Positions 4,561-64,000 of a stretch of 64,000 nucleotides of DNA are shown in pieces. The translations under genes and the position numbers were made by a program. The first letter of the stretch is position 1; each line of letters opens with the position of its first letter. The notes below the pieces were generated by a model that saw only the letters and a list, made by a program, of their open reading frames with translations, ran no database searches and was not told the DNA's origin. Source of the stretch: Octopus vulgaris (taxonomy: Eukaryota); contig OX597821.1 in the NCBI GenBank assembly GCA_951406725.2, forward strand, positions 56,730,001-56,794,000, given 5' to 3'.

Positions 4561-5727
4561 ATGGGCATTCTAGACATTCCTGACATTCCTGACTTTTTAA
4601 CCGGTTCGATCAGGCTTGATCCAGTTTGAACCGGTTTGATCTGGTTTGAACCGGCTTGATCCGGTTTGATCCGGTTTAAACCGGTTTGATCTGGTTTTAA
4701 CCGATCTCTGTCGGCACCGTCTTTGAACTCTGACATTCCTCACATTCCAAACATTCCTGAAATTCCAGACATTCTTGACATTCCTGACATTCCAAACATT
4801 CCTGACATTCCAAACATTCCTGACATTCTAGACATTCCAGACATTCCAGACATTCCTGTCATTCCAGACATTCCAGACATTCCTGATATTTGAACTGGTT
4901 TGATCCGGCTTGATCCAGTTTGAACCGGTTTGATCCGGTTTCAACAAGTTTGATGCAGTGTGATCCGGTTTGCGACGATTTGTCGGCACCGTCTTTGATC
5001 TCTGTCGACACCGTCTTTGATCTCTGTCGGCACATTCTTTGATCTCTGTCGGCTCCGTATTTGATCTCTGTCGGCACACTATTTGATCTCAGTCGGCACC
5101 GTCTTTGATCTTTGTCGGCACACTCTTTGATTTCTGTCGGCACCGTCTTTGATCTTTGTCGGCACCGTCTTTGGTCTTTGTCGGCACCGTCTTTGGTCTT
5201 TGTCGGCACACTCTTTGATCTCTGGCGGCACCGTCTTTGATCTCTGACATTCCTCACTTTCCAGACATTCCTGACATTCCAGACATTCCTGACATTCCAG
5301 TCATTCCTGACATTCCAGACATTCCAGACATTCCAGACATTCCTGACATTCCTGACATTCCAGACATTCCAGACATTCCTGGCATTCCTGACATTCCTGA
5401 CATTTGAAACGATTTGATCAGGCTTGATCCAGTTTGAACCGGTTTGATTCGGTTGTAACCGGTTTGAACCGGTTTGTCGGCACCGTCTTTGATCTTTGCC
5501 GGCACACTCTTTGATCTCTGTCGGCATACTCTTTGATCTCTGTCGGGACCGTCTTTGATCTTTGTCGGCACACTCTTTGATCTCTGTCGATACCGTCTTT
5601 GATCTTTGTCGACACACTCTTTGATCTCTGTCGGAATATTCTTTGATCTCTGTCGGCACCGTCTTTGATCTCTGACATTCCTGACATTCCAGACATTCCT
5701 GACATTCCAGACATTCCTGACATTCCG
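4561..5727. repeat. Satellite transition zone with alternating blocks of 9-bp (GACATTCCW), 10-bp (CCGGTTTGAW) and variant 22-bp (CACCGTCTTTGATCTYTGTCGG) repeats
   Basis: Blocks visible directly, e.g. 9-mer at 4730-4885, 5245-5402 and 5672-5727; 10-mer at 4598-4703, 4890-4970 and 5405-5475. Confidence 0.93.
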
Positions 5728-7504
5728 GAAATTGAATATATAATATATAAGTACCACAGAATTTGAATCAAACTGTTTTGATCCATACATATATACACAC
5801 ACACACATACATACATACACACATACTAAAATTACATCGTTGGAGCAGTAATTTATTCATGTATTTTTTGATATGTAATTTATCTTTAAGCTATCCTGCC
5901 ATTAACCTGCCATTAACCTGGCAGGATCGCTATCCTGCCTATCCTGCCATTAACCCCTTTCTTATAAATTAGTTGAAGAATCTGGGGTGTAGTAATTGGG
6001 CTAGTATTGGAACTTTTAACTTATTGCTCTCTATCTTATGATCTCCGAAATTTAAGAATCTTGTGTTAACTGGGCTCTTATTATTTACTCTGACTCTGCC
6101 ACCACCTCAATGCAAAGACTATCAATATCAGAATCATCTTCACAACCACCACTGAGACATCCTAACATAATCAATGCCACTACTACTATCACGCTGTTTA
6201 AAATTTTCACAAAATAGCTGTCTACCTCACAGTAACACTATGCAGATAATAATTTCAGATCAAAACAGACAATACGATTGGTTAAAATTCGCAGATTTAA
6301 ACTACGTTTAAACTTATAAAATACATTTTTCTCAAAAAAACTAGTTGAAATTAATGTTCTCTTTTGACACATTCTACTAGTATACGAAGTTTCAAATTAT
6401 TTAGTTAACTAGAAAAATCTGGCCTTCTTTTAGAAAAGATCCAGGATATTTTTTAATCATGCAATATTCATTAAATGTTTACAAGCCCAAATTGGTTTAG
6501 GTATTGCTTCCGAATGTACTCCCTTATACATTTAGTATACCTCTAATTCAATTACCCCGTATATTCGATATCATATTTTACGATATCTTATACTTATCCA
6601 CCCTTAAGGAAGAAAATAGTTCTTGTTATTGCTTTAAAATATACTATGTGCTTCTTCATTATAGAATGTATTTCATCATGACCTTCTTAACAATATGATT
6701 AAGATAAGTCTTAATAGTTTTTTCTAATATATTAAAGTATCCCATTATTAGGTTTTAAGTTTAAGCTCTATCCTTATTCTACATATTGATTTAAATTTTC
6801 TCAGTTTAATATAATAAATTTGCTAAGTTATATATTACTACCTCCCGTATTCTTCAATTCTAATTTCCATATCTAAAGTTTAAATTACTTATCTCTTTTG
6901 GTTTTTCATTATATCCCCCTTTATTTGATAATCTAAATAAGTATTGGCCGATCCTTCTTTCTTCCAAGTACCACTCCGTCCCCACCAGTCATTCCCTTAC
7001 TTCTCTGCGACATACCCTTTTATGTAGAAAAAGCTAGATATATGGTTCCAGTACATTGATGGTCTAGTAGATGCTCTGACATTGATTGATTTATCACCAT
7101 CAACTAGAATTCAGTTGACAACTCCCAATGAAATTAATTGTATATGGTTGAAATTTACATGGTACATAAAATCTTCTAAATATAAGTAACTACGTCACCA
7201 CTCCTTTTATCTTGACCGCCACTCTTCCCTCTGCTACTCTCTAAATTATAGTAGGATTAACTAGATATACATTAGTATCTAAACTCATTCTGCCACAGAT
7301 ATAACAAAAGGAAACAACCTAAATATTTTGGTTTCCATTATTGATGTAAATTTGTTTTTAAAAATGGTCTATATTCTATATTTGCGGTCTATGTGGTTAT
7401 CTGGTGAGAGAGGCTTTTTCAAATTGATCTAATATTTTCATTAATCAACTAACTGGAGCCGCTTGAAACGGCCGTAACGAAGTGACACCTGTAGCTCTTT
7501 GTTA

Positions 7505-7654
<150 letters not shown>

Positions 7655-7799
7655 CAGTCAAATATAAATATTGTAAAGAATGATGTATCAGTTGTTGTAA
7701 TACCACGCACTCGTTTCCTTGATTTAAACTATAGTTATGGTTTTAAAAGGAATATGATAAAAAATTTAATTTTTTTTTCTAAAAAAGAAAAGTCAGTTA

Positions 7800-9300
7800 T
7801 CTTGAATGACTTCCTTTTTTTCATTTCGAATAAAATTCTCCTCAACACAGCAACTTGTTTCGCCTCTTCTCCATTTCCTGTAAGAAATTTTTTTCTAGCT
7901 GTTCAAGATGATAAACTGCATCGGAAAAACCAAATTTTTTCGCTTTCCTTTGATTTTCCGATTCATCAAAAATTTCGGACTCGTCATTAATAACAAGGTT
8001 CTCTATGAAAATTTCATCTTGTAGACTATTGTCAACATAGACAGGTAGATTTAAATTATCATAGTATGCTGCTTCTTTTTCATCAATTTTGCTTGAATTT
8101 TTCCTAACACCCATGTTTAGGGCTGGCATTTCAGTACTTCTATTTGTTCCTTCACAATTTTTGAAGGTATGATTAAAACAATATTTTGTATCGACCGAAA
8201 CGGAATTCCATGCCTTAATTATAAGGAGATGGGCATTGAATCACTTGAATTTCTTAATCTGATTAATGAAATTAATATCTTCCTCGTGTATCATACTTAA
8301 TTCCTTAAGAAAATTTTTCTGTAAGAGGCTTTAAAAGAATGAATACCTTGATCAATAGGCTGTATTTTTGATGTGCAATTCGCCAGCAAATGATGTAGTT
8401 CTATATTGCTCAAATTGATATCGATGTAATGAACGGTGGCATTATCGAGCAAAAGAAGTATTTTCCTATTACCAGTAACCATTTTTTCATTACGATTTTC
8501 AACCAATCTCTAAGAATAAACCCAGTCATCCAAGATTTCAACTATGAGTATATTCGTGTCCCAAATTTTCCATGTTAATACTCTTAAAACCTTGCGGAGA
8601 TTTGAATTTACCGGTTATAAGAGGCATTATTTTCCCACCAGTTTTATTCACACAAAAAAGTATTGTAATGTGATCTTTTGAAAATATTTCCGAGGCTCTT
8701 TCTCTGTTGACAACCAGTATATTTGTGGGAGGACATTGATATAAGATACCTATTTAATCGCAATTAGAAATATCTCGAGGAGAGTAATTTTTTGGATTTT
8801 TCAAAAAAATCAAATAAGTTCTTTATTACAACGGGATTTACTAGTTCTTCTCCGGAAATTGTCCTTGATTTTATGCCGAAATTTTCTTTAAATCGTGTAA
8901 TCCACATTTTGTTAAGCTTTAAAATCTTTGATTTGAAGACGATCTGCAATTTTAAGAGCTATAATCTTCATCATATCATTGGTTACTGTGTGAGATTTTG
9001 ATCTATTTTTCTGATTCCACTCTTAAAGTAGATCGTAGATATCTTTTATAACATTCGGTTTTACTAAATTCTTCTTTCCTTGGTGATCTTCTTATTTTTT
9101 TTGCACGTATTTGGATTTGTTCTTTAGAATACTATTAATAACTCCTATTGGCATTTTGAATTTCTTCTTCAGTTCCTTTTGTGTCGCCAACGGGTTCTTT
9201 ATCTTGTGATTCAACACTTCCAATTTTTGTGAACTTGTGTTTTTCTCTTGCTCTTTTTGCTGTTTACTTTGGCACACATGGCTTTGGTTTATACAAAATT
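7800..9300 (-). mobile_element. Degenerate Tigger/pogo-family DNA transposon (frameshifted transposase)
   Basis: Collinear minus-strand fragments: HTH-like 9092-9277 (QKLEVL..ATQKEL..INSILKNK), CENP-B-type HTH 8764-8949 (WITRFKENFGI), DDE_1 motif 8297-8506 (RKILLLLDNATVH..LANCTSKIQPIDQGI..SFKASYRK), acidic C-terminus 7842-8129. Confidence 0.85.
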
Positions 9301-9869
9301 ATATTCAAATTTAGAGAAAATTCTGATTTTTTTTTCAGTGCAATGCCTCGATTTTATAGCAAAATGCCAGTATTTAATATTTAATCCATTTTAAACAAAA
9401 AAAAAAGCACAATGTACTCTTTCTATCAAACTCTTTATCTTTACAAATACTTTATCTGCTATTTTTAGGATTACATCTCAAAAACTTATTTTTTCTCGTG
9501 CGTTTGGTAACAGCTAAATTGAATGATGGGTTTTCAAATAGTCGTGACTGGCTGTTTTTACGCAAATTTTGTAAAAATCGATCGTGGATAGTTAAAACAT
9601 CTTAATCACATTTTTAAAAACAAATTATAGTCTAGCGTGCTCGTTCCTTAACGAATGAGTATTCGTTAATTCGAGAGGATACGTTTTATACGGCATGACA
9701 TGGTTCTTTTAGATATACCACTTGGAAGTTCTGCAATGAAGGATGCTAATGAGGAGAGCAAACCCAACACTAGATTCTCTCCGCTGAACCTCTAAAAGAT
9801 AGTATATCCATAAGTAGGTTCATTTATTTAACCCTCACCAGAGAGAGGAGTTTCAGAGAGCGCAACTAT

Positions 9870-10910
9870 ATTGTTTGTTGTTAACACAACGTTTCGGCTG
9901 ATATACCCTTCAGGTGTGTCAGGGAAATTTCGAACCTGAGTTCTCATTCCTAAGGTATTCATTGATGTTGTTGTTGTTATTATTATTATTGTTGTTCAGG
10001 TCACTGCTTGGAATCGAACTCGGAATCCTGGGGGTTAGTATCCCGCGCTCTTAACCACAACGCCATATACCCTTAGGCAATAATGGAGTGAATTTTAGGC
10101 CTTATAAATCTAATATTTTTCTATCCTTTCTTAATACCGGTTCCCATATGCTGCTCATATCTACACTCGGTCTGCTTAGGAGGTCGTTGTGTCCTAGCAT
10201 ATGTGCTGCTTCTTTTAGTTTACGTATTTCCCAGTGGTGTTCTCTGTATATTATTTTAACTTCATCCCACAGGGGAAGGTGGTCTCCATTTTTCCATACA
10301 TGATCAGCTATATCCGATTTATCAATATCTACTCGTGTCACAGCTTTGCGATGTTCGTCTACCCTTATTTTGAGGGGGCGGTATTTTGAGGGGCCTTTGT
10401 ATAACCTACCACAGCTGCATGGGATGGAGTGCACGCAGTCTTTGGTCATATTCTCTTCTGTTGGTGGTTTTACTCGAAGGAGATATTTGCGAAGTGTTGT
10501 ATACTTGAATACTGTCCTGATGTCATATGGGCTGCATATCTTTTGTATCTTTTCGGAGAGGCCTTTCACATAGGGTAGACTGTGGAGTTTATCAGCTTCA
10601 TCCTTTCTCTTCTTCATAATTGGAGTGGATAGTATACATTTGGAGTAGTTGTTGCTTAACAGATCGTTATTGAGCTTGGTCATTTCTTCGTGGTGTGTAT
10701 CACGATCGCTACTTATATTCTTTGCATGATATTTTAGGCACTGAGCAATCCCTCTCTTTACACTGTATGGATGGTGGGAATTGAAGTTGAGGTATCGTCC
10801 AGTAAAGGTCGACTTGCGGTTATCGGATGTCCTGAATCCATACTTGGTACGTGTTATTAATACGCCCAGGAATGCCAGCTGATTGTATTTTTCCTTTTCC
10901 ATTGTGAACT
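9870..10910 (-). mobile_element. Penelope-like element, 5'-truncated: RT thumb plus GIY-YIG endonuclease ORF (10102-10902), followed by a pseudo-LTR-like 3' region
   Basis: Motifs MEKE..L.FL.V.I, RK.TFTGRYLNFNSHHP..VKRGI, LPYVKGLSEKI, IPCSCGRLY.G...RPL..RV.EH and RKLKEA are typical of PLE RT-thumb/GIY-YIG domains. Confidence 0.9.
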
Positions 10911-38301: not shown

Positions 38302-39145
38302 GTATTAAGAGCCAATAGTAATAGCAAGCGATAAGAAGCATTTACTTCAAATACAGAATATACAACACATCAGAAAGTGATAAGTGCAGAATTTGTGGAC
38401 AAAATGGTGAAACTGTATAGCATATTACCAGTTAATGTACGCCACTAGCTCAGAAAGAATATAAGAGACGTCATGAAAATATAGCAAGGATTGTCCATTG
38501 GACACTTTGCAACAAGTATGGACTTGACAGAGCAATAAAGTGGTACGAACATAAACCCGAAGGCATCATCGAAAATGGTAATCCAGAGATCCTATGAGAT
38601 TTTATTATTCAAGCGACCATGAGATAGACAATAGGAAACCAGACATAGTGTTAATTCAGAAAGAAAGCAAACGATGCTGGATCATAGATATAGCATGCCC
38701 AGCTGACAACACGGTATGCAATAAGGAAGAAAGAAGTCGATAGATACAACAAATTAGCTTGAGAGGTTAAGCAGTTGTAGTCGCTGAAAAGGTGGTAGTC
38801 GGCGAGCTGGCAGAATCGTTAGCACGCCGGGCAAAATGCTTTGCCGTATTTCGTCTGTCGTTACGTTCTGAGTTCAAATTCCGCCGAGATTGTGTTTGCC
38901 TTTCATCCTTTCGGGGTCGATAAATTAAGCACCAGTTACGCACTGGAGTAGATATAATCGACTTAATCCCTTTGTCTGTCCTTGTTTGTCCCCTCTATGT
39001 TTAGCTCCTTGTGGGTAATAAAGAAATAGGTATTACCAATAATTGTCAGAGCCCCGGGAACAATGAATAATCTTAAGTACATGGAACAAATAGGGGCTGC
39101 AGTAAGAATGGGGCACTTGTAGAAAACAGGAACTTTAGACTGCAA
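38302..39145 (+). mobile_element. R4/Dong-like non-LTR retrotransposon, C-terminal restriction-like endonuclease fragment, interrupted by a SINE
   Basis: CRICGQNGETV.HITS.C zinc motif, YKRRHENIARIVHW, RKPDIV..K...C.IIDIACP (PD..D endonuclease motif), PIIV; it starts right after an (AAT)n tract. Confidence 0.82.
38800..39030 (+). mobile_element. tRNA-derived SINE, tail type 2 (..CTCCTTGTGGGTAATAAAGAAATAGG)
   Basis: Same family as 22544-22776. Confidence 0.9.
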
Positions 39146-50200: not shown

Positions 50201-51869
50201 CGTAATCTCGCAGTTTCGGCGCCCGTAGCAGACTTTACTATGCCAAAGATATAAATATGAATGTTTTTATGCAATGTCCGACCTCTCTAGGTAAATAACG
50301 CAGTATTTACAGTTCTAATACAACATCTACGTTAATTTGGATATCAAAATGAAATCAACTTAGTCAATTTTCTTGCTTTTGTTAGGTCCGACTATAGAAA
50401 ATAATTGTTCAATACGATTACAAACAGACCTCATTTTCTTCTGGCCAGTAATACCACTTCCAAGTATAATACAATATAGTTGTAAAAAGCCAGAGCAACT
50501 GAAACGCATGGAATAAAAAGAAAAACATAGCCACCTAAGTAAGTAATTCGTAATTTTAAACCGCTACAAGTTTGTATTGGGAACACTGATGATATTAAAC
50601 CAGATGTCGTTTCGTGTACAATTCTTTAATCTCTTACAATTTCCAGTAAGTTGGTGTGAAAATTTTGATGAAAAGAATAAATCAATGATAGTTAGTAGTA
50701 TGAATTATGAAGCACTTTAAACTATATATGAAGAGAATGCTGCAAAGAACTGAAGCAAAAACTAAAAGTATGTTGCATTTGTTTATATCTGTGTACACAA
50801 AAATACAATTGGGATAAATCTGTGTTCCATAATGGACATTTAAATTAACTGACAAAATATATTTCTAATACGATTTATAATCAATTTAACTAGTTATACA
50901 GACCAAATTAGACTGTGTATTTTATATCATTTCTACTGTAAAAGTATGTCATCCCCAAGTACATCGTTCAATTTTGCAAGACGAAATTTTCAGTCATTCT
51001 TTGTGACAAATCGATCGTGACCTTGCTGTTACTTTCTTGCGCAATTTATATCGAGCTCTGCTCTTACAAACGTCCGGCCTAGCTTTACTTACAGTTGAAT
51101 GCATGGTTATTACAGTAAAACCTATGTATTTAAATACTTTCGTTTTAAGTTCCCTCAGTATTGAAATACTGTCTCTGCAGTTTCTGTTTTGTTTGCAAAC
51201 TTTGCATTACAACCACTATTGTTCCTACCTGAAAAATATTCATTTTTATACGTTAAATTGTATCTCTTATCAACATCCTATTTGTACAATGAAGTTTTCT
51301 TTAGCCAACTATCATATCTTGTTGATTAAGTTGTATTAATTTCAACAAACATTCATAGGAATTCGATATGCTTCTAGAAACTAATCAAAAGTATGCGATT
51401 ATGCAATAAGCATACATATGCATATACGCAAGAGTGATCAAGCTTTCATTCAAATTAAATTTTCAGATGCATAATTTGCTGCAGCCTGTTGAACAAAAAT
51501 AAACGCGGACAAAAAAATATTTATCTTGAAAACACAAAAACAGAACTCAATAACTAATATCCTTTAATTCTAAAATAGATTTTCGGAGAGACGAAATTGA
51601 ATGAGCTGGTAAAATTTGAAAAGTTATTAGATCTTTTTCTTAGCAAAAAGCAATCTTTTCCTATTTTATATTATACTAGCATTAAAGACCCGTCGTTGCC
51701 GGGTCATAGTGCTAGTGCATGTATATATGTGTGTATATATATATATATGTGTGTGTAGATATTACATGTACATTTATATATATACATCTACACATAAAAT
51801 ACAAAGTTATATCTTGATATCGCTAGTGACAACAATACTCAAAATATATAACAGACTGGAATTGTTAGC

Positions 51870-52170
51870 CCGTCTCTTGTAATTTCGATCAATTGTATCT
51901 TGTCCTCCCTCTTGTATAGAAGTGTGGCTACAATCCAGCCTACCTCTACTTCTGGAGGGGGGACATTTAAAATTTTTTTTTCCGGCACGTCCTACGTCCC
52001 AGATATAAAGGTAAAAATAAAATATTTCCACTTTGCAAGTTCGAGTCGAGTACTCCCTTGCACGCTCCGTTGACTCGAACCTTGCTTCTATTGTGGCAAA
52101 TTTACCGCCTCTGATTAGATAACTTTCATAGTCGCACCAAGATACTTTTCGAATGTGCTTTCCTCCATGT
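51870..52170 (-). pseudogene. Old degenerate ORF1-like fragment of the same family, directly abutting the 3' end of the array
   Basis: Manual translation across frameshifts: IRGGKFATIEARFESTERAREY...FLPLYLGRRT...VPPPEVEVGWIVATLLYKREDKIQLIE, aligning with TRGSKYGTVVVHFK...LLPTYLNRR...VPPNVEAEWIVAAV. Confidence 0.72.
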
Positions 52171-52171
52171 G

Positions 52172-53919
52172 ATTTCTTTATTACCCACTAAGGGGCTACG
52201 AAGAATGGCGGACATAACAAAACATGGGGACATAGAACATTATAATTAAACTTTATGAAAATGAATTGTTAAACGAAAAAAATGATAAAATGAAAGCGAT
52301 ACCAACGGCCCCGTCCGTCAGCATCACTTACCTGTCCTTTGTTTTTCATAGTCACTTGAATGTTCTTTGTCAATACGAATAAATTCCATATCCATTCTTA
52401 CTCCGAAATACTCATCCATATTTTCCACGAATTCATCGCTCATTCTTATATCTTTCACCTCCCAATTCTCCCTTTCACACCTCCCCATAAACTCACCTAT
52501 GTTCTTCTTTTCAATCACAGCATACCTAGTCTCTCCAACATCATACCATTTATACTCTTCCATTAGACTTTTAACTTCTTTCTGTTCAGTCATAGTACAA
52601 ATGTACGGCCTGGGTTCGATTTCAATCTCTTGTGTGTGTGTATTCTTTTTTTGTTTTGTTTTCTTGTTGGGGGGAGCGGGTGGGTTCAATGTCTGCATGG
52701 ATAGGGTGGGACTCAGAGGGTGTGGGTGGTTTTGGGGTAGATTGGAGTTCCATATTTTCTTTTTTTCCACGTATTCTTCTCTTCCTCTTACTTCCAGCTT
52801 CCTTCCATTTCTGTGTATTCTCTTCCTCTGTTTCCTTCTCCTCTGGTTTCTGCTTCTCTCTCTCTGGTTCGGAATCCATTTCTTTCCCTGGGGGAGGGCA
52901 GAAGGCTCTTATGTGACCCCTCAGGCCACACTTGTAACAACGTGGAGCCCTGCCCTCCACCCACACTCTCATGATCACGTCTCCCAGTCTGATGCTTTCC
53001 GTCAGGTCCACCAGTACCTCGGTCTCTGCCTGTACGTTCAGCTCCACCGTTACGCCTCTCCAGCCCTCGGACTTAACCGAGGCATGGAGAATATCCACTT
53101 CGTCCTCGTGGCCGCTGATCACAGCCGCCACAATCCATTCTGCCTCCACGTTTGGTGGCACTCCCTCCACCCTTATTCGTGTAATCCTCCTGTTTAAATA
53201 CGTAGGTAATAGGGTTACCTTTTCTGACTTCACCGCCTTCGCCGCCATCTTCCTCGCTGCAGACTCAGTTTTGAAATGCACAACTACGGTACCGTACTTG
53301 GATCCTCGAGTCAGAAAATTTATTTCCTCCTCAGTTCTTCGCAGGGCCTCCTCTATCCATTCCATGGTTACAACTTCTACCCTCTTCCTTTCGTTTGCGA
53401 ACACCCTGTAAATAATGGTCCTCTTATCATACCATTCCTTTCTCCTGGGTGTCGGTGATAGTTCCACCTCACCGCTTTCCTTTTTCATGTATTTCTGGTA
53501 ACTTGGCAACTTGGCCATGTCTACCCCTTTCTCTTCCGCCTTCTTGGTTACACCGGCATAGGTATAACCCAGCTTCTCTTCCAAATTCCTTGCTGCCATT
53601 TCTAGCTCTTTCTCAGACGTAGGCAGGTCTGATAAAGACTCGAAAATTCCAGCCTTTTCTTCCATCAGCTTCATTGCAATTGCCTGTTCCAGTTCCTCAT
53701 CTGTCGTGGACAAGTCTGTTAGAGACTCATAGTCCATTTCCTTCTGTCTGACAGACCGAGAACGGCCGCCAAAACAGAAAAAGTGTAACGCGCTGAACGA
53801 GCGAAACGCGAAACCGCGTCAACGCCGTTCAGAATTTCCACAACAACAACAACGCTTTTTGTTCTTTTTTACCGAATTTCAGGAGCCGAAAAAAACACGA
53901 CCTTTTTTCTCTACATTGT
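52172..53919 (-). mobile_element. Array unit 1 (subfamily A), ORF1-only element
   Basis: 3' tail begins ATTTCTTTATTACCCAC on +; CpG-rich 5' UTR at 53740-53900. Confidence 0.88.
52324..53737 (-). CDS. ORF1/Gag-like protein (putative RRM-like region, CX2CX4HX4C knuckle CYKCGLRGHIRAFC, charged linker, C-terminal domain); frameshift at about 52640-52675
   Basis: ORF 52622-53737 plus the tail of ORF 52324-52770 together reproduce the continuous C-terminus of ORF 59262-60539. Confidence 0.82.
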
Positions 53920-53945
53920 ATTTCTTTATTACCCACTAAGGGCTG

Positions 53946-55695
53946 ATTTTTTATTACCCACTAAGGGGCTACGAAGAGTGCCGGACATAACAAAACATGG
54001 GGACACAGAACATTATAATTAAATTTTATGAACATGAAGTGTTAAACGAAAAAAATGATAAAATGAAAGCGACACCAACGGCCCCGTCCGTCAGCATCAC
54101 TTACCTGTCCTTTGTTTTTCATAGTCACTTGAATGTTCTTTGCCAATATGAATAAATTCCATATCCATTCTTACTCCGAAATACTCATTCATATTTTCCA
54201 CGAATTCATCGCTCATTCTTATATCTTTCACCTCCCAATTTTCCTTTTCACACCTCCCCATAAACTCACCTATGTTCTTTTTTTCAATCACAGCATACCT
54301 AGTCTCTCCAACATCATACCGTTTATACTCTTCCATTAGACTTTTAACTTCCCTCTGTTCAGTCATAGTACAAATGTACGGCCTGGGTTCGATTTCAATC
54401 TCTTGTGTGTGTGTATTCTTTTTTTTTCTTTTGTTTTCTTGTTGGTGGGGAGCGGGTGGGTTCAATGTCTGCATGGATAGGGTGGGACTCAGAGGGTGTG
54501 GGAGGTTTTGGGGTAGATTGGAGTTCCATATTATTTTCTTTTTTCCACATATTCTTCTCTTCCTCTTACTTCCAGCTTCCTTCCATGTCTGTGTATTCTC
54601 TTCCTCTGTTTCCTTCTCCTCTGGTTTCTGCTTCTCTCTCTCTGGTTCGGGATCCATTTCTTTCCCTGGGGGAGGGCAGAAGGCTCTTATGTGACCCCTC
54701 AGGCCACACTTGTAACAACGTGGAGCCCTGCCCTCCACCCACACTCTCATGATCACTTCTCCCAGTCTGATGCTTTCCGTCAGGTCCACCAGTACCTCGG
54801 TCTCTGCCTGTACGTTCAGCTCCACTGTTACTCCTCTCCAGCCCTCGGACTTAACCGAGGCATGGAGAATATCACTTCGTCCTCGTGGCCGCTGATCACA
54901 GCCGCCACAATCCATTCTGCCTCCACGTTTGGTGGCACTCCCTCCACCCTTATTCGTGTAATCCTCCTGTTTAAATACGTAGGTAACAGTGTTACCTTTT
55001 CCGACTTCACCGCCTTCGCTGCCATCTTCCTCGCTGCAGATTCACTTTTAAAGTGCACAACTACGGTCCCGTACTTGGATCCTCGAGTCAGAAAATTTAT
55101 TTCCTCCTCAGTTCTTCGCAGGGCTTCCTGTATCCATTCCATGGTTACAACTTCTACCCTCTTCCTTTCGTTTGCGAACACCCTGTAAACAATGGTCCTC
55201 TTGTCATACCATTCTTTTCTCCTGGGTGTCGGTGACAGTTCCACCTCACCGCTTTCCTTTTTCATGTATTTCTGGTAACTTGGCAACTTGGCCATGTCGA
55301 CCCCTTTCTCTTCCGCCTTCTTGGTTACACCGGCATAGGTATAACCCAGCTTCTTTCCAATTCCCTTGCTGCCATATCTAGCTCCTTCTCAGACATAGGC
55401 AAGTCTGATAAAGACTCAAAAACTCCAGCCTTTTCCTCCATCAGCTTCACTGCAATTGCCTGTTCCAGTTCCTCATCCGTCGTGGATAAGTCTGTTAGCG
55501 ACTCATAGTCCATTTCCTTCTGTCTGACAGACCGAAAACGGCCGCCAAAACAGAAAAAGTGTAACGCGCTGAACGAGCGAAACGCGAAACCGCGTCAACG
55601 CCGTTCAGAATTTCCACAACAACAACAACGCTTTTTGTTCTTTTTTACCGAATTTCAGGAGCCGAAAAAAACACGACCTTTTTTCTCTACATTGT
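53946..55695 (-). mobile_element. Array unit 2 (subfamily A); ORF 54097-55513 broken by about 3 frameshifts
   Basis: Fragments 55325-55513, 54828-55295 and 54097-54915 are highly similar to unit 1. Confidence 0.88.
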
Positions 55696-57437
55696 ATTTC
55701 TTTATTACCCACTAGGGGCGACACAGAAGTGGACACCAAAAGACATGGGGACATAGAACATTATAATTAGAATTTATGAAAATGAATTGTTAAACGAAAA
55801 AATGATTAAATGAAAGCGATACCAACGGCCCCGTCCGTCAGCATCACTTACCTGTCCTTTGTTTTTCATAGTCACTTGAATGTTCTTTGCCAATACGAAT
55901 AAATTCCATATCCATTCTTACTCCGAAATACTCATCCATATTTTCCACGAATTCATCGCTCATTCTTATATCTTTCACCTCCCAATTCTCCCTTTCACAC
56001 CTCACCATAAACTCACCTATGTTCTTCTTTTCAATCACAGCATACCTAGTCTCACCAACTTCATACCATTTATACTCTTCCATTAGACTTTTAACTTCTT
56101 TCTGTTCAGTCATAGTACAAATGTACGGCCTGATATCGAATTCAATCTCTTGTCTGTGTGTGTATTCTTTTTTTTTTTCTTTTGTTTTTTCTTGTTGGGG
56201 GGGAGCGGGTGGGTTCAATGTCTGCATGGATAGGGTGGGACTCAGAGGGTGTGGGTGGTTTTGGGGTAGATTGGTGTTCCATATTATTTTCTTTTCCACG
56301 CATTCTTCTCTTCCTCTTATTTCCAGCTTCCTTCCATTTCTGTGTATTCTCTTCCTCTTCTACTGTCTCCTTCTCCTCTGGTTTCTGCTTCTCTCTCTGT
56401 GTTTCGGAATCCATTTCTTTCCCTGGGGGAGGGCAGAAGGCTCTTATGTGACCCCTCAGGCCACACTTGTAACAACGTGGAGCCCTGCCCTCCACCCACA
56501 CTCTCATGATCACGTCTCCCAATCTGATGCTTTCCGCCAGGTCCACCAGTACCTCGGTCTCTGCCTGTACGTTCAGCTCCACTGTTACGCCTCTCCAGCC
56601 CTCGGACTTAACCGAGGCATGGAGAATATCCACTTCGTCCTCGTGGCCGCTGATCACAGCCGCCACAATCCATTCTGCCTCCACGTTTGGTGGCACTCCC
56701 TCCACCCTTATTCGTGTAATCCTCCTGTTTAAATACGTAGGTAACAGTGTTACCTTTTCCGACTTCACCGCCTTCGCTGCCATCTTCCTCGCTGCAGACT
56801 CACTTTTAAAGTGCACAACCACGGCCCCGCACTTGGATCCTCGAGTCAGAAAACCTACTTCCTCCTCAGCTCCTCGCAGGGCCTCCTCCATCCATTCCAT
56901 GGATACAACTTCTACCCTCTTCCTTTCGTTTGCGCACACCCTGTAAACAATGGTCCTCTTATCATACCATTCTTTTCTCCTGGGTGTCGGTGATAGTTCC
57001 ACCTCACCGCTTTCCTTTTTCATGTATTTCTGGTAACTTGGCAACTTGGCCATGTCGACCCCTTTCTCTTCCGCCTTCTTGGTTACACCGGCATAGGTAT
57101 AACCCAGCTTCTCTTCCAATTCCCTTGCTGCCGTTTCTAGCTCCTTCTCAGACGTAGGCAAGTCTGATAAAGACTCGAAAACTCCAGCCTTTTCCTCCAT
57201 CAGCTTCATTGCAATTGCCTGTTCCAGTTCCTCATCTGTCGTGGACAAGTCTGTTAAAGACTCATAGTCCATTTCCTTCTGTCTGACAGACCGAAAACGG
57301 CCGCCAAAACAGAAAAAGTGTAACGCGCTGAACGAGCGAAACGCGAAACCGCGTCAACGCCGTTCAGAATTTCCACAACAACAACAACGCTTTTTGTTCT
57401 TTTTTACCGAATTTTACAGAGCGCAAAAAAACGTATG
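55696..57437 (-). mobile_element. Array unit 3 (subfamily A)
   Basis: Same termini as the other units; ORFs 56142-57272 and 55844-56299. Confidence 0.88.
55844..57272 (-). CDS. ORF1/Gag-like CCHC protein, frameshifted near 56165-56205
   Basis: Near-identical to the unit 1 protein. Confidence 0.8.
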
Positions 57438-59109
57438 ATTTTTTATTACCCACAAGGGGCCAACGAAGAGGGGGACATTACAAGACATGGGGACATGGAA
57501 CATCACAATTACATATATATGAGCAAAATGGAATATGAAAATGATATATGAGAGCGATACCGACGGCCCCATCCGCCAGCATCACTTGTCTGTCCTTCTT
57601 CACCCATTTTCAATTAGTATTCCTGTTTCACCTATCACAACATTCGTTTTTCTTTTAGCCCTCTCTATCCATTCATCTTTCATTTCCACTGACTTCCAAC
57701 ACACACCCTCTTCCTCAAACCTTGTCGCCAATATACCCGTATCCTCACTATCCACAGCCGTGTAGCTCCAATCTTCGTGTTCGTACCACTTGGTTAACAC
57801 CAGTTTTTTAACGTTTTGTATGTCTTTCCCTTGTATAACACATAAAAAATGGGTCTTGGGACTTTCTTTGCTCTGTGTGTCTGTTTTTGTTTTTCTTGTA
57901 GGCGGGGAGTGGGTGGAATCACTGTTTGCAGGGGAAGGATGGGACTCCAAGGGTATGGGTGGTGTCGGGGTGGGTTGGGGTTTCGCACAGTTTTTCTTTT
58001 TCTTTCTCTTTCTCTTTGTTCCCACTTCTTTCCACTCTTGTTGCATCTCCTCTTCTTCTGTCGTTTCCTTCTCTGTTTGTTTCTGTTTATTTTCTTCCTC
58101 TCCTGAGGCTTCCTCAACGCTTTCCTTTTCTTTTTCCTTTGGTGGGGGAGGGCAGTAGGCTCTTATGTGACCCCTTTGGCCACACTTGTAGCACCTGGGC
58201 ACCCTACCCTCCACCCACACTCTCATAATAATATTTCCAGTTTTTATGCTGTCCGTAATCCTCTCTATAACATCCGCCTCCGCTTGAATGTTCATAACTA
58301 GTGTGGCACCTCTCACGCCTTCATACTTCATAATGGCGTGGAGGATGTCCACTTTATCTTCATTTCCTTTTATAACCGCAGCCGTTATTAATTCGCCCTC
58401 TAGGTGTGGAGGTATTCCCTCCACCCTAATTCTAGTTGTCCGCCTATTCAGATACGAGGGTAACAAGTAAATCTTTTCTGTACTCACCACCTTGGCTGCT
58501 ACATTCCTGGCTGCTTTTTCGCTTTTAAATTGCACCGTTATCGTTCCGTATTGTAATCCTTTTGTCATGTACACAATTTCCTCTCCTGTCTGCTTGAGAG
58601 CCTCTTCAATTGCTTCCATGTTGATTACTTCCATCTTTCTACCTCCATTCATAAATACTTTATATTTAATGGTTCTACGATGGAACCAGTCTCCGCGCCC
58701 TACTGGATGCAGCAGCTCGACTTCACCGTTCTCGTCCTCCTTCACAAACTCCTGGAGGCCCGCCAACTTAGCCAAGTCTATCTCTCTTTCCGTTTACTTC
58801 TTCGTTACACATGCGTAGGTGCCTTCCATCTTTTTCACCGCCAACTCCTCCTCAGATGTCGATACTTCCGTCGAAATTTCAGAGTAAATTCTCCCTTCCA
58901 TCTCCTCCGCTTGATGGAGGCGGCTCATAGTCGCCTCCGGCCGAGAAACGGCCTCCCGAACCGAAAAAGTGTAACGCGCAGAACCAGTGAGACGCGAAAC
59001 CGCATCAACTACGTTCAAAATTTTACAACAACAACCATTCACTTTTTGTTCTTTTTTCTTTTTACCGAATTCCACAGAGAGCAAAAAACACGGAGCCGAA
59101 AAAACGCAT
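57438..59109 (-). mobile_element. Array unit 4 (subfamily B)
   Basis: Same terminal motifs; 5' UTR recognisably related to A; divergent ORF. Confidence 0.88.
57600..58928 (-). CDS. ORF1/Gag-like CCHC protein B (CYKCGQRGHIRAYC); in-frame TAA at 58794-58796 separates the N-terminus (MSRL..TYACVTKK) from the 391-aa remainder
   Basis: ORF 58794-59171 is in frame with ORF 57600-58775; homologous to A (TYAGVTKK, LLP.YLNRR, IMRVWVEGR.PRC). Confidence 0.8.
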
Positions 59110-60862
59110 ATTTCTTTATTACCCACTAAGGGGCTACGAAGAATGGCGGACATAACAAAACATGGGGACATAGAACATTATAATTAAACTATATGAACAT
59201 GAAGTGTTAAACGAAAAAAATGATAAAATGAAAGCGATACCAACGGCCCCGTCCGTCAGCATCACTTACCTGTCCTTTGTTTTTCATAGTCACTTGAATG
59301 TTCTTTGCCAATACGAATAAATTCCATATCCATTCTTACTCCGAAATACTCATTCATATTTTCCACGAATTCATCGCTCATTCTTATATCTTTCACCTCC
59401 CAATTCTCCCTTTCACACCTCCCCATAAACTCACCTATGTTCTTTTTTTCAATCACAGCATACCTAGTCTCTCCAACATCATACCGTTTATACTCTTCCA
59501 TTAGACTTTTAACTTCCCTCTGTTCAGTCATAGTACAAATGTACGGCCTGGGTTCGATTTCAATCTCTTGTGTGTGTGTATTCTTTTTTTTCTTTTGTTT
59601 TCTTGTTGGGGGGGAGCGGGTGGGTTCAATGTCTGCATGGATAGGGTGGGACTCAGAGGGCGTGGGTGGTTTTGGGGTGGATTGGAGTTCCATATTATTT
59701 TCTTTTCCATGTATTCTTCTCTTCCTCTTACTTCCAGCTTCCTTCCATTTCTGTGTATTCTCTTCCTCTGTTTCCTTCTCCTCTGGTTTCTGCTTCTCTC
59801 TCTCTGGTTCGGGATCCATTTCTTTCCCTGGGGGAGGGCAGAAGGCTCTTATGTGACCCCTCAGGCCACACTTGTAACAACGTGGAGCCCTGCCCTCCAC
59901 CCTCACTCTCATGATCACTTCTCCCAGTCTGATGCTTTCCGTCAGGTCCACCAGTACCTCGGTCTCTGCCTGTACGTTCAGCTCCACTGTTACGCCTCTC
60001 CAGCCCTCGGACTTAACCGAGGCATGGAGAATATCCACTTCGTCCTCGTGGCCGCTGATCACAGCCGCCACAATCCATTCTGCCTCCACGTTTGGTGGCA
60101 CTCCCTCCACCCTTATTCGTGTAATCCTCCTGTTTAAATACGTAGGTAACAGCGTTACCTTTTCCGACTTCACCGCCTTCGCTGCCATCTTCCTCGCTGC
60201 AAATTCACTTTTAAAGTGCACAACTACGGTCCCGTACTTGGATCCTCGAGTCAGAAAATTTATTTCCTCCTCAGTTCTTCGCAGGGCTTCCTCTATCCAT
60301 TCCATGGATACAACTTCTACCCTCTTCCTTTCGTTTGCGCACACCCTGTAAACAATGGTCCTCTTATCATACCATTCTTTTCTCCTGGGTGTCGGTGATA
60401 GTTCCACCTCACCGCTTTCCTTTTCCATGTATTTCTGGTAACTTGGCAACTTGGCCATGTCGACCCCTTTCTCTTCCGCCTTCTTGGTTACACCGGCATA
60501 GGTATAACTCAGCTTGTCTTCCAATTTCCTTGCTGCCATTTCTAGCCCTTCTCAGACGTAGGCAAGTCTGATAAAGACTCGAAAACTCCAGCCTTTTCCT
60601 CCATCAGCTTCACTGCAATTGCCTGTTCCAGTTCCTCATCCGTCGTGGACAAGTCTGTTAGAGACTCATAGTCCATTTCCTTCTGTCTGACAGACCGAAA
60701 ACGGCCGCCAAAACAGAAAAAGTGTAACGCGCTGAACGAGCGAAACGCGAAACCGCGTCAACGCCGTTCAGAATTTCCACAACAACAACAACGCTTTTTG
60801 TTCTTTTTTACCGAATTTTCAGGAGCCGAAAAAAAAAAAAACACGGTGCCGAAAAAAACGCG
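59110..60862 (-). mobile_element. Array unit 5 (subfamily A)
   Basis: Same termini; the 5' motif is present twice. Confidence 0.88.
59262..60676 (-). CDS. ORF1/Gag-like CCHC protein A; 425 aa open through the C-terminus, with a 1-bp deletion near 60546 detaching the MDYESL N-terminus
   Basis: ORF 59262-60539; the upstream ATGGACTATGAG matches units 1-3. Confidence 0.82.
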
Positions 60863-62657
60863 ATTTTTTTATTACCCACAAGGGGCCACGAAGAGGGGGA
60901 CATGACAACACGGGACATGGGGTACATAAAGTAAAAATAAAATATGAAGTAAAAGATGAATTTATATGTAATGAGATGGAACGGCTTACGAACCCCCAAC
61001 TCGCAGTTCCGTTTAAAATACAATTATACATTTCATATATTCCAGTTCAAAATGCAATTTTACAGTTACATATATTCCAGTTCACAGTACAATAATTTTA
61101 CAATTTTACATGTTAACATTACATATATTCCTGTTCAAAAACACAACTTTACATCAAATAATTTTACAAGTAACAATTCTAATTCTTTTACATTAGACAC
61201 TCGTCCGTCATATAATCCAATAGGTCCGTTTGATCTATTACATCTGGTAATTTATCATACCGTACATAATGCATTATATGCATAGCATGATATATCTTTT
61301 TTAATTTTGTGTATGTCTCCTTGTCTATAATGACGCCTTTTACATCTTCACCATACAGTTTTGGGTTCACCTTCACCCTGACCAACCCTTTCTTACCTAC
61401 AAGTCTCTTTTCCACTTCTGTATTCTTGATATACATCACAACTGCCTTCAAGTTTTTTCCTGTAGGCCTTCTTCCATATTTACACGATTCCAATTGTTCG
61501 TTCACTCTTGTCTCCCATTCTTGTTCAAACTCTGTCCTTGGTCGCTCTCTCACCTTTTCTTTTACTTCCTGTTCTTTTTTCTCTTCTCTCTCTTCTGCTA
61601 TCTTGCTTTTGATTTTTTTCTTTTTTATATCTTTCGGTGGTGATTCCACCCTTGATCTCTTCTTGTCTTCTGTTTTTTCCTCTTCTGCACTTGCTCGTTC
61701 TTCCTCATTTAACTGCTCCTCCATTTGTGTTTCCTCCGCTTTCGCTTCCTCCACACACGCTTCTTTACACTCCTCTATCACAACCTCTGGTGCTTTTGTT
61801 TTTTCTCGCGGGCACACATCCTTCATGTGGCCCCTCGATTTACAGTTATAGCAAATTGGGGGTCTTCCCTCTACCACAACTCGGAGCCGTGTTTCGTCAG
61901 GGTAGACCAACTCCTCCGGGATGTTGTACAGGTCTCGCACGGTTATGTGTGCCAGAACCTGCACCGTATATCCCCACCACTTCACCTCTGCTGACTTCTC
62001 CACCTTCAGTACCTCCACATCATCCTTGCAGTTAAACAGCACTGCTGCCAGCAACCTTTCCATATTAAATTCGGGTGAGATTCTATTGATTCTCATCCTC
62101 ACTGCTCTCCTTCCGCAGTAACTTGGTAGCAAAGTCCACTTATCCGATTTAAAAATTCTTGTAGCGTTCTTTTTTGCCTCCTCTTCTGTTTTAAAATACA
62201 CCACTACCGTGGCATACTTCCTTCCTCTTTTAAAAAATGCTGGTTCACCCTCAATTTCCTTCAGACACCTTTCCACTTCTTCCATTTCCGCTACTTCAAT
62301 CTTCTTCGACTCCACGCACCACGTCCTGTACGTTATAGTACGCTTCTCTGCACTGCTTTCCTCCTCCTCGGACGGTGTGACTATCACACAGTCACCCTCC
62401 TCTTTAAACTGTCGAAATACTTCTGTAAAGTCTTCTGTTCGACCATCACCTCCTCCATTTCCAGTTCACCGGCAACCAGGCCTCTGCCTGCCGCTCGCGC
62501 GTAAGTCTGCTCTTGCATTTTCAAGAAAAATTATTCCACGTCCTCCAACGAACTCGAACTCACAACCTCTTTACTCGAAATAAACACACCAGAATAAACA
62601 CACCAGAATAACTCCAACTAACTAACTCAAAAAAAACACGGGAGCCGAAAAAACGCG
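60863..62657 (-). mobile_element. Array unit 6 (subfamily C)
   Basis: Same 3' tail and 5' motif; different UTR bodies and a strongly diverged ORF. Confidence 0.88.
61188..62518 (-). CDS. ORF1/Gag-like CCHC protein C (CYNCKSRGHMKDVC); probable ATG at 62518 with a -1 frame break at 62402-62408
   Basis: 399-aa ORF 61188-62387 shares KRG.KYATVVV.FK, LLPSY.GRR and RVVVEGRPP.C; the upstream frame MQEQTYARAA..LQKY matches A-type TYAG..YQKY. Confidence 0.78.
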
Positions 62658-64000
62658 ATTTTTTTTATTACCCACAAGGGGCCACGAAGAGGGGGACATT
62701 ACAAGACGGGACATGGGGTACATAAAGTAAAAATAAAATATGAAGTAAAAGATGAATTTATATGTAATGAGATGGAACGGCTTACGAACCCCCAACTCGC
62801 AGTTCCGTTTAAAATACAATTATACATTTCATATATTCCAGTTCAAAATGCAATTTTACAGTTACATATATTCCAGTTCACAGTACAATAATTTTACAAT
62901 TTTACATGTTAACATTACATATATTCCTGTTCAAAAACACAACTTTACATCAAATAATTTTACAAGTAACAATTCTAATTCTTTTACATTAGACACTCGT
63001 CCGTCATATAATCCAATAGGTCCGTTTGATCTATTACATCTGGTAATTTATCATACCGTACATAATGCATTATATGCATAGCATGATATATCTTTTTTAA
63101 TTTTGTGTATGTCTCCTTGTCTATAATGACGCCTTTTACATCTTCACCATACAGTTTTGGGTTCACCTTCACCCTGACCAACCCTTTCTTACCTACAAGT
63201 CTCTTTTCCACTTCTGTATTCTTGATATACATCACAACTGCCTTCAAGTTTTTTCCTGTAGGCCTTCTTCCATATTTACACGATTCCAATTGTTCGTTCA
63301 CTCTTGTCTCCCATTCTTGTTCAAACTCTGTCCTTGGTCGCTCTCTCACCTTTTCTTTTACTTCCTGTTCTTTTTTCTCTTCTCTCTCTTCTGCTATCTT
63401 GCTTTTGATTTTTTTCTTTTTTATATCTTTCGGTGGTGATTCCACCCTTGATCTCTTCTTGTCTTCTGTTTTTTCCTCTTCTGCACTTGCTCGTTCTTCC
63501 TCATTTAACTGCTCCTCCATTTGTGTTTCCTCCGCTTTCGCTTCCTCCACACACGCTTCTTTACACTCCTCTATCACAACCTCTGGTGCTTTTGTTTTTT
63601 CTCGCGGGCACACATCCTTCATGTGGCCCCTCGATTTACAGTTATAGCAAATTGGGGGTCTTCCCTCTACCACAACTCGGAGCCGTGTTTCGTCAGGGTA
63701 GACCAACTCCTCCGGGATGTTGTACAGGTCTCGCACGGTTATGTGTGCCAGAACCTGCACCGTATATCCCCACCACTTCACCTCTGCTGACTTCTCCACC
63801 TTCAGTACCTCCACATCATCCTTGCAGTTAAACAGCACTGCTGCCAGCAACCTTTCCATATTAAATTCGGGTGAGATTCTATTGATTCTCATCCTCACTG
63901 CTCTCCTTCCGCAGTAACTTGGTAGCAAAGTCCACTTATCCGATTTAAAAATTCTTGTAGCGTTCTTTTTTGCCTCCTCTTCTGTTTTAAAATACACCAC
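62658..64000 (-). mobile_element. Array unit 7 (subfamily C), cut by the window edge; essentially identical to unit 6
   Basis: ORF 62984-64000 translates identically to the matching part of 61188-62387 (offset 1796 bp). Confidence 0.9.

Follow-up and report, generated by a model that had tools for sequence, protein, structure and literature searches.

A 64,000-nucleotide stretch of the Octopus vulgaris genome (assembly GCA_951406725.2, contig OX597821.1, positions 56,730,001 to 56,794,000 of the forward strand), referred to here as the window, was analysed for the repeated elements near its right end. On the minus strand, positions 52172-64000 contain seven head-to-tail units of 1.67-1.80 kb and one tail-only fragment. 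The units are copies of non-LTR (long terminal repeat) retrotransposons that carry ORF1 (open reading frame 1) only, i.e. gag-only elements, stacked head to tail, and the flank of the stack is a non-autonomous Helitron. Each unit consists of a single ORF of 442-472 amino acids (aa) and untranslated regions (UTRs). The ORF is an ORF1 homologue with one CCHC knuckle, and AATAAA is present in each unit. With a probability of about 0.72, the stack was built at one Helitron site by repeated site-specific target-primed reverse transcription (TPRT), performed in trans by the ORF2 of an L1/Tx1-like long interspersed nuclear element (LINE). The features are listed below in the 5' to 3' order of the minus strand.

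About 458-977 nucleotides (nt) beyond the window end, minus strand: Helitron 5' half (P) with a TATA box, identified by BLAST
62658..64000, minus strand: unit 1, lineage C, 99.7% identity to unit 2; extends about 450 nt beyond the window end
60863..62657, minus strand: unit 2, lineage C (group g2); ORF frameshifted (365 aa), intact copies 443 aa
59110..60862, minus strand: unit 3, lineage A; 425-aa ORF preceded by an in-frame stop (472 aa in intact copies at other loci)
57438..59109, minus strand: unit 4, lineage B (group g3); ORF broken (350 aa)
55696..57437, minus strand: unit 5, older sub-type of lineage A, 95% identity to unit 3; 5' end ACGTTTTTTTGCGCTC; ORF broken (376 aa)
53946..55695, minus strand: unit 6, lineage A; 5' tag identical to the 20-nt tag of unit 7; ORF broken
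53920..53945, minus strand: tail-only copy, extremely 5'-truncated, about 24-26 nt
52172..53919, minus strand: unit 7, lineage A (group g1); tail at 52188-52172; ORF broken (371 aa + 124 aa)
51676..52171, minus strand: Q1, the 3' half of the host non-autonomous Helitron; BLAST match to an empty copy, 91.8% over 510 nt

The lineage order is thus C, C, A, B, A, A, A, with three deeply diverged lineages, and the ORF is broken in all seven units. The 5' end of unit 7 is a 20-nt Helitron-derived tag, ACAATGTAGAGAAAAAAGGT. Q1 starts at the insertion site with ACATGGAGGAAAGCAC; its other end consists of the hairpin GACCCGGCAACGACGGGTC, TTTAATG and CTAG, in this order, and is followed by a host T; the Helitron 3' end motif lies at 51692-51676. 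No frames for reverse transcriptase (RT) or endonuclease (EN) were found in the window units, and the Pfam search gave only a weak zf-CCHC match below the cut-off.

Unit junctions in the window

On the minus strand, the tail motif GGGTAATAAA occurs eight times, starting at 62673, 60877, 59124, 57451, 55710, 53959, 53934, and 52186. Each internal tail in the stack leads to the 5' end of the next unit; the conserved junction between divergent units, described in the original prediction, is therefore real. The blocks TGTCC, CTTCGT, and GCCCCTT that it had placed upstream were also found before each tail, as TGTCC, CTTCGT, and GCCCCT(T)(A)GTGGGTAATAAA. The 3' end of a unit reads ...TGTCC..CTTCGT.GCCCCT(T)(A)GTGGGTAATAAA(G)AAAT. 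A ninth copy of GGGTAATAAA in the 64 kb lies on the plus strand at 39013, within an ordinary short interspersed nuclear element (SINE; 38800-39029), and there are no others.

The next unit starts with CG(C/T)GTTTTTT(T)CGGC(T/A)CC or a degenerate form of it, either directly or 20 nt after the tail. The exact motif, CGYGTTTTTT(T)CGGCWCC, was found 0-20 nt past five tails, at window positions 53896, 55672, 60859, and 62654 and at L001:450, just beyond the window. One tail is followed by TGCGTTTTTTCGGCTCC at 59105, and another by the degenerate form ACGTTTTTTTGCGCTC at 57432; the latter, at unit 5 of the present count, is the degenerate 5' motif that had been claimed. The double junction at 53946/53920 results from the extra tail copy, and the last tail of the window (52172) has a different sequence downstream.

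A small stem-loop had been proposed in the tail. The CCC/GGG pairing exists as an invariant 3-bp stem; it shows neither covariation nor unusual stability. RNAalifold on the tail alignment gave -3.4 kcal/mol and zero covarying pairs, and the single-sequence fold had z = -0.67 against shuffles. An Rfam E-value scan of 51000-64000 revealed no ribozyme or RNA family at the unit ends and only simple-repeat matches below threshold.

Arrays and unit lineages in the genome

The 5' motif has 61 exact matches in the 2.8-Gb genome (control, 1), at 33 loci. Of these, 35 lie no more than 40 nt downstream of a tail (control, 0); the check suggested with the original prediction, that 5' motifs follow tails more often than by chance, thus gave a positive answer. 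DNA of 20-30 kb was fetched around all 32 loci besides the window. Units were present at 32 of the 33 loci, the remaining locus being a lone motif. Two or more units were found at 28 of the 32 unit loci; the fetched stretches contain as many as 12, and one locus has at least 14. Arrays, whose rarity would have spoken against the prediction, are the rule. They mix unit groups, and in annotation they will probably be mistaken for tandem genes or unknown repeats. The 3'UTR motif of lineage A has 175 genome matches and, among the matches listed, most recur at a spacing of about 1.7 kb. At locus C1_74.68 (L010-L011, positions 7292-9967), an inverted partial lineage-A unit lies between two direct partial ones, a local rearrangement in the stack.

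Clustering of 152 segmented units yielded six multi-copy groups and singletons. The groups are g1 (lineage A, 85 units), g2 (lineage C, 18), g3 (lineage B, 15), g4 (13), g5 (6), and g6 (4). Full-length ORFs are kept in 19/85 units of g1 (471-472 aa), 6/18 of g2, 8/15 of g3, and 6/13 of g4. The proteins of units A and C share 40% identity over 159 aa. A sequence search of the unit protein against the PDB returned nothing under E = 0.2, and in the protein atlas the protein fell into CCHC and ZCCHC3-like clusters, which are taken as leads only. In lineage-C tails, the A run that follows AATAAA and precedes the start of the next unit varies in length between 7 and about 29 A (G000:C4:26052169-26052215, C4:70048091-70048145, and C1_142.9 at 10799). 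These variable runs could reflect polyadenylated templates or slippage.

The host Helitron and its insertion site

Array starts within the fetched DNA abut the same flank at the same base in 30 of 30 cases; the other two arrays ran off the fetched stretch. The stacking thus reflects a strong insertion-site preference, as the original prediction had supposed. The DNA after the last array element is a second conserved flank, and both flanks are contiguous elsewhere in the genome. The motif of the upstream flank (P) has 907 matches and that of the downstream flank (Q1) 538, and the two lie about 100 nt apart at 344 places or more, which represent empty copies.

From twelve empty copies, the element is seen to be about 1.05-1.2 kb long. 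Its 5' TC is preceded by A in 20 of the 22 ends found. Its 3' end is CTAG in 27 of 28 (CTAC in one), and the next base is a host T in 28 of 28. In nearly all copies, CTAG is preceded, at a distance of 7-8 nt, by the hairpin GACCCG-GCAACGA-CGGGTC. The copies often sit in (TA)n and lack a target duplication. No long ORF, hence no Rep/helicase gene, was found in the empty element of about 1.05-1.2 kb, which makes the Helitron non-autonomous. The empty copies (L073-L084) also carry one to three tandem 145-bp subrepeats near the 5' end, so that the Helitron 5' half measures about 450-680 nt.

The empty site reads ...TCTATAAAGTATACAATGTAGAGAAAAAAG(AAG)ATTTGAAC^ACATGGAGGAAA^GCACCTTCG or, in short form, ...GTAGAGAAAAAAG(AAG)ATTTGAAC^ACATGGAGGAAA^GCACC. 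The filled site reads ...GTAGAGAAAAAAGGT|CGYG...units...tail|(C/A)ACATGGAGGAAAGCACC, in which GTAGAGAAAAAAGGT and ACATGGAGGAAAGCACC come from the same Helitron. The insertion site lies about 25 nt, and the unit start about 30 nt, downstream of the Helitron TATAAAG box. With a TATA box ahead of the 5' motif, the promoter may well be external and not internal. The compact site GAAC^ACATGGAGGAAA^GCACC adjoins the TATA box, so an insertion may bring its own means of expression. The Helitron joins the few transposons that serve as dedicated LINE targets.

The short tags reported at some junctions are present; as to their identity, they are the Helitron's own sequence from just upstream of the site. 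About 19 junction inserts resemble the window tag and consist of 10-80 nt of this sequence. Their variants match the lineage of the following unit and not the local Helitron end. A tail-like string, GATGGATAATAAAAAAT, was also noted in the Helitron 5' half about 75 nt upstream of the site (e.g. L001:528). At five loci, internal junctions have a unit tail joined to the Helitron-derived leader at, or a few bases inside, GATGGATAATAAAAAAT. This string could mark an ancient tail, or a hot spot of recombination or template switching.

The autonomous LINE and the shared tail

A 5.2-kb LINE, which encodes ORF1 and ORF2, adjoins the Helitron 3' half in at least nine of the fetched arrays. Its ORF2 matches Exo_endo_phos (1.3e-13; APE-type endonuclease), RVT_1 (1.2e-30), and zf-RVT (PF13966; 2.8e-06 and 5.6e-09, both above the cut-off). 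The best solved relative of ORF2 is human L1 ORF2p (5e-65, full length), and R2 proteins scored 1.6e-25 or worse. A protein homologue search returned 119 homologues, almost all unnamed, and the clade was not fixed by names. By these matches, the element is an L1/Tx1-like non-LTR retrotransposon and a candidate member of the Tx1 clade. The ORF of unit A matches the ORF1 of this LINE with 35% identity over 236 aa (E = 4e-47), and the 5' and 3' termini are common to the units and the LINE.

The LINE 3'UTR motif has 50 genome matches, and 30 of these 3' ends were examined. They were followed by the Helitron 3' half in 21 cases (and partly in one more), by another such LINE in six, and by other DNA in two; 28 of the 30 thus lie at the Helitron site or are stacked on a LINE there. 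Three solitary LINEs, fetched whole, read ...GATTTGAAC ACATGGAGGAAA [LINE] ACATGGAGGAAA GCACC, with a 12-bp target site duplication (TSD) at the same position in 3/3. LINE-LINE pairs arranged head to tail with a spacing of 5.26 kb, each with ACATGGAGGAAA sandwiched between its two members, were observed at G000:C3:34859746/34865005, C4:143171192/143176457, and C5:89655667/89660925, and further at C12:75762022/75767280 and C19:53165/58423.

Immediately upstream of one Helitron lies another LINE, which has EN and RT but lacks the shared tail (L056, G000:C13:24747501-24757500, about 5000-8600). It recurs in the flanks of 8-11 other loci and may be the partner of other repeats there.

The tail motif GTGGGTAATAAARAAAT has 24,652 exact genome matches, against six for the reversed control. 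Most of them, as judged from several that were inspected, are the 3' end of a tRNA-like SINE, which we take to resemble the common octopus SINE. The last 50-60 nt, including GCCCCTTGTGGGTAATAAAGAAAT, are homologous in the SINE and the units, and the LINE has a variant form. Besides the SINE, at least six ORF1-only lineages thus have this tail, and the LINE with EN and RT has a variant of it. The 3' motif, predicted to be a recognition end, indeed behaves as the shared end of a retrotransposition system. A text search of the literature for the tail and SINE strings gave three chance matches, all in unrelated work.

SINE/LINE pairs with a shared 3' tail, and 'stringent' recognition of it, were reportedly described by Okada and colleagues, whose work is cited in PMC4494074. 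The likeness lies in the homologous 3' ends of SINE, units, and, as a variant, LINE. The difference is that here only the LINE and the units keep to a single site; the SINE, with 24,652 tails, is spread over the genome. Because of this difference, the dispersed SINE likely has a second, non-specific LINE partner. Tandem arrays of 5'-truncated SINE 3' halves with a period of 183-184 bp were also noted (L003, G000:C1:4607001-4611000; C1:3630978-3631360; C1:6955763-6955962). Their copies are all cut at the same base, and each ends in the shared tail.

Divergence of inserts and host Helitrons

Between loci, the non-coding LINE 3'UTR has a median identity of 99.3% and ORF2 one of 99.8%, and the 300 nt of Helitron directly downstream of the same LINEs have 93.1%. 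The medians for the unit 3'UTRs between loci are 97.6% (g1), 99.05% (g2), 98.6% (g3), and 99.5% (g4). At the unit loci, the Helitron 5' half has a median identity of 96.0-96.5% and the 3' half 94.0-95.4%. Since the inserts are 97.6-99.8% alike and the host Helitron halves only 93-96.5%, the insertions were independent and recent.

Filled and empty Helitron copies are mutually equidistant. Their tree is star-like, with a median terminal branch of 0.024, and filled and empty copies are interleaved (the label changes 9 times; the mean after shuffling is 9.0).

Formation of the stacks

In the mechanism we favour, the tail would be the recognition end for the RT, and the units would depend on the ORF2 of the LINE, as their shared termini and shared site suggest. 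An insertion would leave the site usable, so that the site could be hit again and the stack would grow, the Helitron-5' (promoter) side being the probable end of growth. Units would be transcribed from the Helitron TATA box that precedes their start. The tags at internal junctions may be sandwiched target duplications, made as a later unit entered upstream. Alternatively, they may be the 5' leaders of transcripts begun in the Helitron, and homology-guided joining of such leaders would give a uniform upstream junction. Local unequal crossing-over would add runs of near-identical units.

Hallmarks of TPRT occur within the arrays, namely 5'-truncated units, the tail-only copy of the window, and junctions with 0-4 additional bases. 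Elements follow one another in a strict order. The LINE always adjoins the Helitron 3' half, and its tail leads to a unit in 0 of 30 cases; among the matches listed, 22 of 35 LINE 5' ends are preceded by a unit tail. Group g4 lies downstream of g1, g2, and g3 in all 13 arrays that hold it. This order is compatible with stacks that grew step by step at one end, in the simplest case at the promoter side. Signs of local duplication in the window are the two C units (99.7% alike) and the two A units with the same tag.

Several observations weigh against repeated TPRT at the Helitron site. The tail by itself gives no site specificity, since the SINE that carries it is dispersed. Most unit-unit junctions, 83 of 172 tails by regular-expression classification, are direct and have no sandwiched duplication, unlike the LINE with its 12-bp TSD, and solitary units replace 8-11 nt of the target without a duplication. 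The junction of Helitron and first unit is nearly identical at 30 loci, a uniformity that independent TPRT events would not usually produce and that calls for a further assumption, e.g. joining via a Helitron-derived leader. The last 10-25 nt of Helitron before the first unit co-vary with the lineage of that unit. Identity is higher within than between loci (g1, 98.2 vs 97.3%), and the same 30-nt filler occurs five times in one array; local duplication therefore also builds arrays. As for the direction of growth, private substitutions amount to 0.08% in first units and 0.30% in last units, a weak rise along the arrays that is not significant (rho = 0.11, p = 0.23). Monophyly of the filled Helitrons costs 25 log-likelihood units, yet it is not formally rejected by the approximately unbiased (AU) test (p = 0.07). 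The loci were found via exact motifs, which favours young copies; the age contrast between inserts and Helitron holds for the flanks of the same loci despite this ascertainment.

The alternative that survives best, although we regard it as unlikely, is that each array is a concatemer made in one event: the RT would start at the Helitron nick and jump from the 5' end of one template to the 3' tail of the next unit RNA. End-to-end template jumping is known for the R2 RT and provides a precedent. Most internal joins are precise, from the tail to a full-length 5' end with 0-4 extra bases (83 direct junctions among 172 tails), and private substitution rates are low and nearly flat along the arrays, as expected from such jumps. 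However, a random pool of RNAs would not be expected to yield the strict order, with the LINE at the Helitron-3' side and g4 downstream in 13/13 arrays. The Helitron-derived tags at about 19 junctions, the 5'-truncation of about 10 units in mid-array, and the variation of array length and composition among loci also argue against single events. For the 83 direct junctions themselves, end-to-end template jumping is a live alternative.

It is improbable that the arrays are cargo of the Helitron, i.e. that a few insertions were spread by rolling-circle transposition and then altered by unequal crossing-over or gene conversion. Such a history would explain why every array lies inside a Helitron with near-identical junctions on both sides and why identity is higher within a locus than between loci. 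One Helitron variant about 150 nt upstream is enriched in filled copies (17/30 vs 1-2/12 empty), and the AU test (p = 0.07) leaves monophyly of the filled copies formally unrejected. However, the flanking Helitron halves are 4-7% diverged, against 0.2-2.4% for the inserts, even in non-coding 3'UTRs. Filled and empty copies are interleaved on the star tree with its median terminal branch of 0.024, and the three solitary LINEs with clean 12-bp TSDs sit in otherwise ordinary Helitron copies.

The original prediction regarded the 5' motif CGYGTTTTTTCGGCWCC as both internal promoter and integration target, with new copies landing on the heads of older ones. The tail precedes 35 of the 61 5' motifs and, if growth is at the promoter side, new units do land directly upstream of an existing 5' motif. 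The role of target is nevertheless contradicted by the 344 or more empty sites, which lack the 5' motif, as did the sites of solitary LINEs and units before insertion. All 30 visible array starts abut the Helitron site and not another head. The tags place breakpoints in Helitron sequence 0-80 nt upstream of the motif, and 5'-truncated units without the motif still have units stacked upstream. We consider this version very improbable. A tandem host gene family, such as a domesticated gag-like cluster, is hardly credible: some copies keep full-length ORFs (g1 19/85, g2 6/18, g3 8/15, g4 6/13) and each unit has AATAAA, but the units lie at 32 loci in separate Helitron copies, with mixed lineages, 5'-truncations, and a tail common to SINE and LINE, and 7/7 window units are broken.

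A wider scheme, which we offer tentatively and hold to be rather doubtful, is a three-layer mobile consortium comparable to a eukaryotic cassette array. In this consortium, the Helitron would provide a TATA promoter and a harmless, multicopy landing pad, the LINE would provide EN and RT, and at least six deeply diverged ORF1-only lineages would survive only by stacking downstream of the promoter. If true, the HeT-A/TART arrangement would have been invented a second time, independently and away from telomeres, and any LINE confined to an array-forming niche would tend to spawn gag-only parasites.

Comparison with known systems

Tx1-clade LINEs target DNA transposons and form tandem insertions that sandwich the TSD, according to the available sections of PMC4494074. 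The same sections report that Tx1 of Xenopus inserts into the non-autonomous piggyBac element Tx1D and that SINEU-3 is stacked in Mariner-N4_AMi with the TSD sandwiched. By analogy, the octopus system appears to work like a Tx1-type target-specific LINE with non-autonomous partners. In both, an APE-type, L1-like LINE occupies one sequence inside a non-autonomous DNA transposon, re-use of the site gives tandem copies in which the TSD can be sandwiched, and non-autonomous partners share the LINE tail. The octopus system differs in that the host is a Helitron and not a cut-and-paste transposon, and the partners are several deeply diverged 1.7-kb ORF1-only lineages and not SINEs. Its stacks reach 12-14 units, and its site is located about 25 nt past a TATA box.

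For flies, the accessible part of PMC13534243 describes repeated ORF2 loss solely among telomere-specialised, array-forming elements; the following comparison with HeT-A, TART, and TAHRE of Drosophila is also based on it. In both systems, ORF1-only elements rely on the ORF2 of another element (as the octopus units would), several ORF1-only lineages form mixed-family head-to-tail arrays in one niche, and 5' ends can carry a piece of the upstream neighbour. The octopus array is non-telomeric (56.7 Mb of a 118.9-Mb contig), and its ORF2 is L1-like and not of the Jockey clade. It occupies an internal DNA site with target duplication instead of chromosome ends, and its putative promoter would come from the Helitron and not from the 3' end of a neighbour, as the position of the TATA box indicates. 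The ORF1-only Helitron stacks are, by this analogy, likely parallel to and convergent with the gag-only HeT-A elements of flies.

The R1/R2 LINEs, specific for ribosomal DNA, and their non-autonomous derivatives offer a third comparison. The likeness lies in a multicopy 'safe' target, precise junctions, and a likely reliance on transcription of the target. The differences are an APE/L1-like endonuclease and a transposon target here, not a host gene, and no ribozyme was found at the 5' end by Rfam. The available portion of the octopus repeat paper PMC13282606 gives L1-Tx1 and Helitron families and describes no site specificity. Among the papers that the literature search listed or that were read, no description was found of a LINE that targets a Helitron, or of ORF1-only stacks outside Drosophila. 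Several ORF1-only lineages in mixed arrays, with an unrelated LINE group and an internal site, make a second example beside Drosophila. The question of why niche-confined LINEs shed ORF2 thereby becomes testable outside Drosophila.

Additional features of the window

A telomere-type terminal array was considered and rejected, because the array lies in mid-contig (56.73-56.79 Mb of 118.9 Mb) and stops about 450 nt past the window. The ORF breaks at 52622-52700, 54480-54560, and 56142-56230 (minus strand) fall in A-rich homopolymer runs of a lysine-rich linker; either genuine decay or assembly errors in homopolymers could account for them.

At the other end of the window, positions 1-5733 hold a 4.6-kb satellite with a 22-bp unit, CACCCTCTTTGATCTCTGTCGG, in 208 copies with 88% matches. 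Downstream of this satellite, still within 1-5733, lie interleaved arrays with periods of 9, 10, 18, 20, 22, and 30 bp. The GC content of 1-5733 is 51%, compared with about 35% in the remaining window.

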